DNA of 1,316 bases from Escherichia coli (GTDB taxonomy: Bacteria; Pseudomonadota; Gammaproteobacteria; Enterobacterales; Enterobacteriaceae), in NCBI RefSeq assembly GCF_003334335.1, contig NZ_QOWQ01000111.1. One strand, given 5' to 3'. The position numbers and the translations under genes are program-made. The notes under the pieces were generated by a model. That model was not told the DNA's origin. It saw nothing but the letters and a program-made list of their open reading frames with translations, and made no database searches. Positions 27-1,316 of this stretch are shown piece by piece. Each line of letters opens with the position of its first letter. Within the stretch, counting starts at the first letter, position 1.

Positions 27-305
27 TTACCTCCAGATGCGTTGCTGGAATGTGCGGGACGGACGCGGTGGGCGTTCAGAGTAAGGAAGCCTGACGGAGA
101 TTATCCAGTGACGATAATCGAGGCTGAGGGTTTTCCTAAACTCATACCCACGTCTGCGGTAGTTCTGAATCAGCCATTCGGCCTGTTCTTCAGTGCATGG
201 GGCGTGCTGGAACCAGTCAGATTTGAATGCATGAGAACGCCGCCCGTGCCTGCTGGCAAAGACGGCTGAATTATCAGAATTGTATAATTTGGTATCGTGC
301 GCCAT
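27..305 (-). CDS. Hypothetical protein, 92 aa from the first ATG (MAHDTKLYNSDNSAVFASRHGRRSHAFKSDW...RIWR); function unknown
   Basis: Longest ORF in the region. The ORF track starts it at TTG 386, but that codon lies inside the hok terminator, so ATG 305..303 is preferred. SD is weak (GAGA) and no family was recognised. Confidence 0.4.
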   Translation of the reverse strand: MAHDTKLYNSDNSAVFASRHGRRSHAFKSDWFQHAPCTEEQAEWLIQNYRRRGYEFRKTLSLDYRHWIISVRLPYSERPPRPSRTFQQRIWR

Positions 306-472: not shown

Positions 473-628
473 TTACTCCTCAGGTTCGTAAGCTGTGAAG
501 ACAGTGACCTCCGTCTGGCCGGTTCGGATTCGTACCTCGCAGAGGTCTTTCCTCGTTACCAGTGCCGTCACAATGACGGTAATACAGATGACGATCAGGG
601 CGACTAACATCGCCTTTTGCTGCTTCAT
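473..628 (-). CDS. hok: Hok/Gef-family type I toxin, 51 aa (MKQQKAMLVALIVICITVIVTALVTRKDLCEVRIRTGQTEVTVFTAYEPEE)
   Basis: Manual reverse-complement translation from ATG at 628..626 to TAA at 475..473. SD AAGGAG (643..638) lies 9 nt upstream of the ATG. The protein has the Hok-family hallmarks: ~50 aa, N-terminal hydrophobic helix, conserved LCE motif and C-terminal AYE motif. From memory it is closest to the chromosomal E. coli HokD(RelF)/HokC(Gef) subfamily, differing at a few positions. Confidence 0.9.
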   Translation of the reverse strand: MKQQKAMLVALIVICITVIVTALVTRKDLCEVRIRTGQTEVTVFTAYEPEE

Positions 629-685
629 AGCCTGCTTCTCCTTGCCTTTCGGCGTGTAAGAGGCTAACCTACATGTGACTAGCAT
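473..685 (-). CDS. mok: mok-like regulatory reading frame (70 aa), an in-frame N-terminal extension sharing the hok stop codon
   Basis: ORF-track 70-aa frame starting at ATG 685..683, with SD-like GAGG about 8 nt upstream (697..694 on the plus coordinates). The 19-aa extension MLVTCRLASYTPKGKEKQA is translated across the hok SD. This matches, as I recall, the mok/hok arrangement of chromosomal loci such as mokC/hokC, which share a stop codon. Confidence 0.65.
   Translation of the reverse strand: MLVTCRLASYTPKGKEKQAMKQQKAMLVALIVICITVIVTALVTRKDLCEVRIRTGQTEVTVFTAYEPEE
642..670 (+). promoter_or_regulatory. Putative sok promoter (-35 TTGCCT 642..647, 17-bp spacer, -10 TAACCT 665..670)
   Basis: Hexamers read directly from the sequence with canonical 17-bp spacing. 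The promoter sits inside the mok coding region on the opposite strand, as expected for sok. Confidence 0.45.
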
Positions 686-747
686 GAAATTGGCCTCAGA
701 TTAATGTTAAGCGTCCTGCAAGACGCATAATGTTAACTGGGGCTTTT
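677..747 (+). ncRNA. sok: Putative Sok-like antisense RNA (~70 nt) complementary to the mok translation-initiation region
   Basis: Plus-strand promoter-like TTGCCT-N17-TAACCT (642..670) predicts a start near 675..678. The transcript would be antisense to the mok SD/ATG (683..697). It ends in a long imperfect hairpin (693..743) followed by TTTT (744..747). Size and position match the known Sok RNA layout. Ends are approximate. Confidence 0.55.
693..747 (+). terminator. Putative sok RNA terminator hairpin plus U-tract
   Basis: Imperfect inverted repeat 693..715 / 722..743 with core stem gcgtc/gacgc (711..715 / 722..726) and loop ctgcaa, followed by tttt at 744..747. Confidence 0.45.
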
Positions 748-750
748 CTC

Positions 751-785
751 TGTCTGCCTTACGGTGGCATGCCCGAGGCAGACAG
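751..785 (-). promoter_or_regulatory. Structured hok mRNA leader element: 9-bp inverted repeat (751..759 ctgtctgcc / 777..785 ggcagacag) around a 17-nt loop containing the palindrome ggcatgcc
   Basis: Inverted repeat seen directly. It lies in the predicted 5' leader of the hok transcript, where hok mRNAs carry regulatory stems (tac/ucb region). Confidence 0.5.
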
Positions 786-791
786 CCTCAA

Positions 792-800
792 GCACCCGCA
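792..800 (-). promoter_or_regulatory. 5' leader block (tac-like) perfectly complementary to 408..416
   Basis: Plus 792..800 gcacccgca is the exact reverse complement of plus 408..416 tgcgggtgc. At least 792..797 would be transcribed if +1 is near 797. Confidence 0.4.
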
Positions 801-803
801 GCA

Positions 804-831
804 ATTCTACTTAACTCTCGCTTTACCGCAA
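804..831 (-). promoter_or_regulatory. Putative hok/mok mRNA promoter (-35 TTGCGG 831..826, 16-bp spacer, -10 TAGAAT 809..804; predicted +1 near 797)
   Basis: Minus-strand hexamers read from the sequence; TAGAAT is a 5/6 match to TATAAT. The predicted start gives a ~170-nt leader before the hok ATG, in line with known hok mRNAs. The predicted 5' end reads GGGUGCUUGAGGCUGUCUGCC. Confidence 0.4.
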
Positions 832-843
832 ACCGTTTTTACC

Positions 844-865
844 CGATATGGGAATTCCCATATCG
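844..865. repeat. 22-bp perfect palindrome CGATATGGGAATTCCCATATCG centred on an EcoRI site
   Basis: Read directly from the sequence; it is its own reverse complement. It lies between the stop of the 34-aa ORF (874) and the predicted hok -35 (831), about -47 to -68 from the predicted +1. No T-run follows on either strand, so it is not an obvious terminator. Confidence 0.9.
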
Positions 866-873
866 TAATGAAT

Positions 874-978
874 TCAGTTCCCTAGTCGATCCATCAAAAA
901 CACAACCAGGCAGTAAACACCCACAACAGCAATAACAGCCAGCGCACCTTCCATTGCCAGTGAGATATCATCCGACAC
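874..978 (-). CDS. Candidate small hydrophobic protein, 34 aa with a GTG start (MSDDISLAMEGALAVIAVVGVYCLVVFLMDRLGN)
   Basis: Strong SD AAGGAGG (988..982) followed 4 nt later by GTG 978..976; stop TGA 876..874. One predicted transmembrane segment. An alternative ATG at 980 in another frame gives a 28-aa peptide but has a 2-nt spacer. Found by manual translation. Confidence 0.3.
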   Translation of the reverse strand: MSDDISLAMEGALAVIAVVGVYCLVVFLMDRLGN

Positions 979-1013
979 ATTCCCTCCTTTGGTGTTAATC
1001 CCGGCGAACGCTT

Positions 1014-1097
1014 TTACCCACACCGACAAATAACATATACTAAAAAAGCGATAGCCATAGCAACGCCTGTAATTGCAAATGCTTCAGGCCAGATCAT
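1014..1097 (-). CDS. Candidate small hydrophobic protein, 27 aa (MIWPEAFAITGVAMAIAFLVYVICRCG)
   Basis: Textbook RBS: AGGAGG (1110..1105), 7-nt spacer, ATG 1097..1095. The start codon overlaps the stop of the upstream ORF as ATGA, suggesting translational coupling. One predicted transmembrane segment. Below the ORF-track length threshold; found by manual translation. Confidence 0.35.
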   Translation of the reverse strand: MIWPEAFAITGVAMAIAFLVYVICRCG

Positions 1098-1276
1098 TGG
1101 CGCACCTCCTGCGGCGGTTCTGGTAACGGCATCCAGTCGGTTACATTGCGGCTCTGTGTTTCGAAAAATTCATCACCATTACGGACTACATCAAAAAACT
1201 CACCGTCTCGATATTGCGCATAAAGAACGAATGCGCCATCACATAAAATAATTACGTGCTGACCATCATCCGGCAT
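1094..1276 (-). CDS. Hypothetical protein, C-terminal 60 aa from the first Met; the frame stays open to the right window edge, so the gene may be 5'-truncated
   Basis: ORF-track frame with stop TGA at 1096..1094. Translation upstream of ATG 1276 remains open through 1315 (…PVTPDGWISCSER-MPDDGQ…). Contains a duplicated acidic motif, DGEFFDVV / NGDEFFET. No family recognised. Confidence 0.4.
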   Translation of the reverse strand: MPDDGQHVIILCDGAFVLYAQYRDGEFFDVVRNGDEFFETQSRNVTDWMPLPEPPQEVRQ

Positions 1277-1316
1277 TCGCTCACTACAGCTTATCCAACC
1301 ATCCGGAGTTACCGGA

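Follow-up and report, generated by a model that had tools for sequence, protein, structure and literature searches.

What is encoded by a reading frame that runs off the edge of the DNA in which it is seen? The frame in question lies on the minus strand at the right end of a 1,316-nt stretch of Escherichia coli DNA (the window, meaning the whole stretch analysed), where the list of open reading frames (ORFs) gives a 60-aa ORF with an ATG start (1094..1276). A first-pass annotation had suspected that this call might be the end of a larger protein, had drawn attention to two FF motifs that it took for a duplication, and had recognised no protein family. We put at about nine in ten the probability that the frame is the 3' end of an accessory gene from the nin region of an E. 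coli lambdoid prophage, with a complete C-terminal DUF551 domain, and this estimate covers both the identity of the gene and its anatomy.

The frame is open up to the window edge. Its translation (1094..1315, minus strand) runs PVTPDGWISCSERMPDDGQ...PPQEVRQ before the stop, and the 73 codons that are open up to the edge read PVTPDGWISCSERMPDDGQHVIILCDGAFVLYAQYRDGEFFDVVRNGDEFFETQSRNVTDWMPLPEPPQEVRQ, again followed by the stop. It comprises the following elements:

1094..1316, minus strand: very probably the 3' end of a larger prophage gene, with the end of a linker and the complete C-terminal DUF551 domain (open frame, and its extension in matching genomes).
1109..1300, minus strand: Pfam DUF551 (PF04448) domain, residues 6-69 of the 73-aa translation (Pfam, AlphaFold2, AFDB50 matches).
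1274..1276, minus strand: internal Met codon behind the mechanical 60-aa ORF call, not a real start (inside the DUF551 domain, after the invariant W7).
1094..1096, minus strand: stop codon TGA of the DUF551 gene.

The family that had gone unrecognised was supplied by a Pfam scan of the window translation, which returned DUF551 (PF04448) with E=1.1e-21 and 77.9 bits over positions 1-68 of the 68-position model. Because the match spans the full model and residues 6-69, the domain lies entirely within the window, which has very little of the rest of the gene. The family signature consists of an N-terminal W-I-x(5)-(L/M)-P and a C-terminal (H)-W-M-P-L-P-x-x-P, and both parts are present. Among 45 diverse DUF551 domains, W7, P15, W61 and P63 never vary, conservation reaches at least 90% for P65 and P68, and the window has all of these residues. 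DUF551 proteins also came top in a Foldseek search against AFDB50 (query-normalised TM-score up to 0.96), where the matches are named DUF551, DUF550 or EaA throughout (best 50 of the 53 with E<=0.001). Searches with NCBIfam and PADLOC models gave no matches, PHROGs gave matches only to families of unknown function (phrog_60, 924, 660 and others), and a PDB sequence search with the domain gave nothing meaningful (best E=0.053, an archaellin). The remark that the frame does not resemble RelE held: the Pfam scan gives DUF551 only, and the RelE/ParE toxin profiles (the hokD neighbour in the K-12 prophage Qin) were not matched in Pfam, NCBIfam or PADLOC. Public databases already list the exact proteins, under the name 'DUF551 domain-containing protein'.

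The position of the domain bears directly on where the gene starts. A free-standing 60-aa gene that begins at the ATG at 1276 would account for the entry in the mechanical ORF list, and deposits of an identical protein of 60 aa come from 109 contigs. Its start, however, falls within the Pfam domain and would cost the 73-aa translation 13 residues at its N-terminal end, among them the family-invariant Trp (W7). The conserved domain sequence continues in frame upstream of the ATG, and the intact homologues are 195-302 aa long. The database entries are consistent with truncated calls, and in the same 90% cluster the label 'partial' is carried by most of the other members listed. We find a gene of this kind hardly credible; what the 60-aa call shows is the last part of a larger protein, cut by the window edge, as had been suspected.

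The larger protein can be read in related prophages. Six E. coli chromosomes match the window at 99.8-99.9% identity, none of them exactly, and prophage Sp6 of O157:H7 Sakai matches it at 96%. The gene in Sp6 is ECs_1518, which encodes 195 aa (UniProt Q8X8A9), the last 73 of them identical to the window translation; this protein is found on at least 1000 contigs. An uninterrupted ORF of 302 aa, with an N-terminal region longer than and different from that of Sakai, was read in JE86-ST05, 99RCEF and UCPROB-002, and the figure of five among the six closest loci with 302 aa includes JE86-ST02 and UCPROB-001 on the basis of equal match statistics. The 302-aa protein has been called intact on 132 contigs as 'DUF551 domain-containing protein', and DUF551 is its sole Pfam domain (E=3.6e-20). 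RefSeq/PGAP splits this uninterrupted ORF into two 'partial' pseudogenes (L003:2594-3502, L006:2294-3202 and L007:2294-3202, minus strand), likely because the mosaic middle segment (PGGFTIEEAKELHEDLVRSH...) is absent from shorter reference proteins.

SW070917, where mismatches to the window are fewest (1/1316, against 2-3 in the other five loci), carries a decayed form of the Sakai-type gene. Compared with Sakai, its upstream part has two nonsense codons (CGA>TGA and CAG>TAG), a 1-nt deletion and a 33-bp tandem duplication, and RefSeq flags it 'frameshifted; internal stop'. The gene in the source genome of the window may likewise be a decaying pseudogene, whose tail would be unexpressed or made only as an N-terminally aberrant product of 127 aa or 60 aa, and truncated calls of these two lengths exist on 57 and 109 contigs. 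We consider this somewhat unlikely. The window is identical to none of the six loci, SW070917 included; five of the six have the uninterrupted 302-aa ORF (three of them read), which is also a called protein on the 132 contigs; and the domain-coding part is intact, with 1 difference from Sakai in 223 nt, a synonymous one, versus 53 in the remaining 1093 nt of the window (Fisher p=7e-4). An upstream stop or a non-coding remnant, which the first-pass annotation had named as the finding that would speak against a gene, is thus what is seen in SW070917 and not in the other five close relatives, with their intact ORF. The duplicated unit of SW070917 (L001:5320-5400) is a perfect repeat of CGTCAACCAATAATTTTCGGGAAATCTCGGAAA, giving STNNFREISET twice in a Ser/Thr/Asn-rich linker, and genes of the JE86 type also have two related copies of this linker unit.

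The surroundings of the frame are those of a lambdoid prophage. All recognisable genes of the window are on the minus strand:

1014..1097, minus strand: unannotated 27-aa hydrophobic ORF, MIWPEAFAITGVAMAIAFLVYVICRCG (frame and length kept in Sakai Sp6, with 3 aa changes, and in AUSMDU00014361).
874..978, minus strand: 34-aa predicted membrane ORF, RefSeq hypothetical WP_001278450.1 (GTG start here, ATG in Sakai; no PHROG match).
623..797, minus strand: sok antisense RNA (Rfam RF01794, 117.6 bits).
473..685, minus strand: hok-family toxin, overlapped by a 70-aa frame of the mok type (hokD CDS in RefSeq: window 473..628).
27..305, minus strand: 92-aa hypothetical protein between hokD and the DUF968 gene (RefSeq WP_032270698.1 / WP_024192040.1).

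Read in the direction of transcription, matching genomes have replication genes, several small ORFs, the DUF551 gene, two tiny membrane ORFs, hokD/mok with the sok RNA, the 92-aa hypothetical protein, DUF968 (YdfU-like), RusA and Q. The locus is the nin-like delayed-early region of a lambdoid prophage, with the DUF551 gene upstream of hokD. The hok/sok part is matched in 4985 of 5426 E. coli genomes, and the stretch of the 92-aa hypothetical protein is where the window differs most from Sakai, positions 1-300 accounting for 31 of the 54 mismatches. The ATG of the 27-aa ORF, which has only a weak PHROG match (phrog_38566, E=0.0035), shares bases with the TGA that ends the DUF551 gene (ATGA, 1094..1097), and this suggests translational coupling. 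A promoter and terminator scan of 800..1316 found nothing above shuffle expectation, and the composition profile is unremarkable (GC 0.45-0.57).

The structure of the domain was predicted with AlphaFold2 on the alignment of the 45 diverse DUF551 domains. The model (pLDDT 92) has five strands, at residues 20-25, 29-36, 39-46, 49-55 and 58-63, and in it the domain is a five-stranded antiparallel beta-barrel of SH3/Tudor-like topology. The full-length model of the 195-aa protein (mean pLDDT 60.2) has helices at 6-98 (pLDDT 44-60), a linker at 99-125 (33-41) and the barrel (83-91), its low-confidence N-terminal region being readable only as helical with a disordered linker. As modelled, the DUF551 domain sits behind this helical region and a disordered linker rich in Ser, Thr and Asn. 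The structure prediction that had been proposed for the motif region places both FF motifs in the barrel, and they lie where the first-pass annotation had located them (around 1160..1208):

1184..1207, minus strand: motif 1, DGEFFDVV, the predicted beta2-beta3 turn (D37-G38) and the start of strand beta3 (residues 39-46) (AlphaFold2).
1157..1180, minus strand: motif 2, NGDEFFET, the predicted beta3-beta4 turn (G47-D48) and strand beta4 (residues 49-55) (AlphaFold2).

Strand beta3 thus corresponds to EFFDVVRN and strand beta4 to EFFETQS. The two motifs occupy structurally equivalent sites, a turn and then the start of a strand, in consecutive hairpins, and they have G-x-EFF-acidic in common. 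They could be the trace of an ancient tandem duplication of a beta-hairpin unit (turn plus EFF strand), a history that we nevertheless judge highly improbable. The best internal self-alignment of the protein (RDG-EFFD with RNGDEFFE, BLOSUM62 score 20) is no better than chance, with 362 of 1000 composition-preserving shuffles scoring as high. The near-repeat reported in the DNA amounts to 10 of 12 nt (TGAGTTTTTTGA versus TGAATTTTTCGA) and is equalled in 247 of 300 shuffles, and a repeat search with a 6-nt seed found no direct repeat in 1094..1316. The same region holds one 10-nt inverted pair, which we regard as chance. The motifs also differ in their distribution among the 45 domains: G38 (87%) and F40 (80%) of motif 1 are conserved family-wide, whereas motif 2 is conserved at 33-64%, is confined to an EFFET subfamily and is missing in most other core types. 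Since motif 2 is bound to one subfamily and motif 1 is not, their resemblance arose within that subfamily or by convergence. The likeness can be explained by the predicted fold, in which each motif makes a tight turn and then enters the following strand of an antiparallel meander. On this model, the '(D/N)G(D)EFF' motifs are neighbouring turn and strand elements and not a gene-internal duplication, so that the motifs themselves stand and the claim of duplication does not.

The right edge of the window coincides with the 5' one of two conserved junctions that bound the module:

1265..1316, minus strand: conserved 5' junction of the DUF551 module, encoding PVTPDGWISCSERMPDD, a mosaic recombination boundary (partial genome matches).
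1094..1137, minus strand: conserved 3' junction of the DUF551 module, encoding D or H, then WMPLPEPPQEVRQ and the stop (DNA conserved in AUSMDU00014361).

The 223-nt module has some match in 2412 of 5426 E. coli genomes and at least 80% of it is matched in 595; 362 of the matching places are on plasmids. The partial matches that were sampled cover roughly 1265..1316, at 94-100% identity, in otherwise different genes, and homology between different N-terminal types resumes exactly at this junction. At the same locus in AUSMDU00014361 both junctions are kept around an unrelated domain core. In MNCRE44 the junction lies within a protein with a MazG-like dATP/dGTP pyrophosphohydrolase domain, where a DUF551 with a different core is fused to a fragment of that pyrophosphohydrolase. 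Junctions that flank unrelated DUF551 cores recur across the genome collection (L004:1501-1731, L005:1290-1781), including in Ea22-like proteins.

The same picture emerges at the level of the family. The domain is matched by 1854 cluster representatives (E<=0.001), and it ends at most 10 aa from the C-terminus in 139 of the 144 representatives with a full-length match, in proteins of 68-380 aa. The N-terminal 100 aa of the Sakai type (at least 90% identity) are joined to at least 12 unrelated cores, and the core of the window (at least 85% identity) to at least 19 different N-terminal types. DUF551 behaves as a cassette that passes among many different N-terminal partners. The low divergence of the domain DNA from Sakai is consistent with a recent exchange of the module. 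Mutagenesis of the DGR type was considered as a source of core diversity and rejected, as the cores are replaced wholesale, with indels, and not by site-specific substitutions; no reverse transcriptase annotation was found in the prophage stretches examined.

A bolder reading of these patterns, which we hold to be unlikely as it stands, is that the core of about 40 residues is a hypervariable specificity cassette. It would be swapped at the two DNA-conserved junctions of about 45 nt (PVTPDGWISCSERMP upstream, HWMPLPEPPQEV downstream), with the N-terminal region exchanged independently, to give 'effector x binder' proteins under diversifying selection. If this were so, the exchange of cores could track variable host targets or defence systems, and DUF551 genes would form a widespread and unrecognised polymorphic adaptor system of enterobacterial temperate phages.

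Comparison with known systems leaves the window copy well within its family, from which it differs in nothing essential, its N-terminal partner lying beyond the window edge. ECs_1518 and YfdS of the K-12 prophage CPS-53 (PF04448 / IPR007539) match the HMM over its full length, as the window does, and agree with it in the W...P...W-P-x-P-x-x-P signature, in having the domain at the C-terminus and in belonging to a prophage early region; the core of YfdS differs from that of the window, and it resides in a different prophage. The core itself, both FF motifs included (DGEFFDVVRNGDEFFET), also forms the C-terminal domain of Ea22_V2 of the Stx2a-converting phages WGPS2 and 1447 (PMC10834534). The Ea22-like gp05 of the Stx2a phage WGPS2 has the window core at its end, with 94% nucleotide identity over all 223 nt. 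Phages with ea22_v2, WGPS2 among them, have been described in the same work, which calls DUF551 a 'portable domain' and points out acidic C-terminal domains (PMC10834534). The rest of these proteins differs. Ea22_V2 has an Ead/Ea22 N-terminal region and coiled-coil regions and is encoded in the exo-xis region, whereas the window gene is in a nin-like region and its relatives have an unrelated helical 'MTTITK...' N-terminus, the Ead_Ea22 signature being absent from the Pfam (DUF551 only) and NCBIfam (nothing) results for the 195-aa and 302-aa relatives. P22 EaA and the Eaa1-type proteins (DUF550 plus DUF551) have the C-terminal barrel in common with the window (query-normalised TM-score 0.73-0.80 against AlphaFold DB models), but their N-terminal domain is DUF550 and their DUF551 part is about 35-45% identical. 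Small barrels of the Tudor, PWWP, KOW and SH3-like types are alike only in fold, with 5-17% sequence identity and no relationship detectable from sequence.

The literature on DUF551, PF04448/IPR007539/phrog_60 and yfdS yielded no functional study of the domain. Passages in PMC4776307, in PMC3105296 as cited there and in PMC10834534 link deletion of yfdS (CPS-53) to H2O2 sensitivity, and state that YfdS or YfdT is needed, with YfdQ and YfdR, for multicopy suppression of the over-initiation of hda-185. In passages of PMC4776307 and PMC10834534, DnaA is described as bound by YfdR and not by YfdS. We propose, tentatively, that DUF551 is a non-catalytic binding or adaptor module, because it is a small barrel of SH3/Tudor-like topology with invariant Trp/Pro residues at its ends and an acidic core that varies, and because it keeps to the C-terminus behind a flexible linker and is promiscuous in its fusion partners. 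The invariant Trp and Pro residues of the two conserved ends would form a constant scaffold, and the variable acidic core would set the specificity for the partner. In early infection or lysogeny, the domain might then tether to a host or phage target whichever N-terminal module is fused to it, be this an Ea22-type coiled coil, a MazG-like dNTP pyrophosphohydrolase or the helical 'MTTITK...ACRAAML' region.

The acidity of the domain allows for a different role. With 14 D/E and 5 K/R, a net charge of -9 and a pI of 4.1, it might be a DNA mimic or an anti-restriction or anti-defence decoy, whose hypervariable core would track variable host defence targets. Most relatives are acidic too, the gene is in an early position, the diversity of the cores between conserved junctions is extreme, and DUF551 is found fused to MazG-like dNTP pyrophosphohydrolase fragments. 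Still, some DUF551 cores are basic (pI 8.4), the PADLOC and NCBIfam searches gave no matches, and the literature covered above holds nothing in support, which makes a decoy improbable in our view. To our knowledge, the known DNA mimics are elongated, unlike a beta-barrel of 60 residues, and this too counts against such a role.

The feature in the window is thus an ordinary and already catalogued fragment of a prophage gene that is very common in E. coli. Its sequence, its family and its exact core (the C-terminal domain of Ea22_V2) were all on record, and the value of the finding as a discovery is small. For annotation, it means that a gene of 195-302 aa lies behind the 'hypothetical protein' calls of 60 aa and 127 aa at this locus, which are artefacts of its truncation. 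The one mildly interesting feature is how DUF551 cores and N-terminal regions are reassorted in many combinations at the conserved junctions. This two-way shuffling is unusually clean and offers a possible handle on the binding partner of DUF551, and it could help to understand how accessory genes evolve in Stx and other lambdoid phages.
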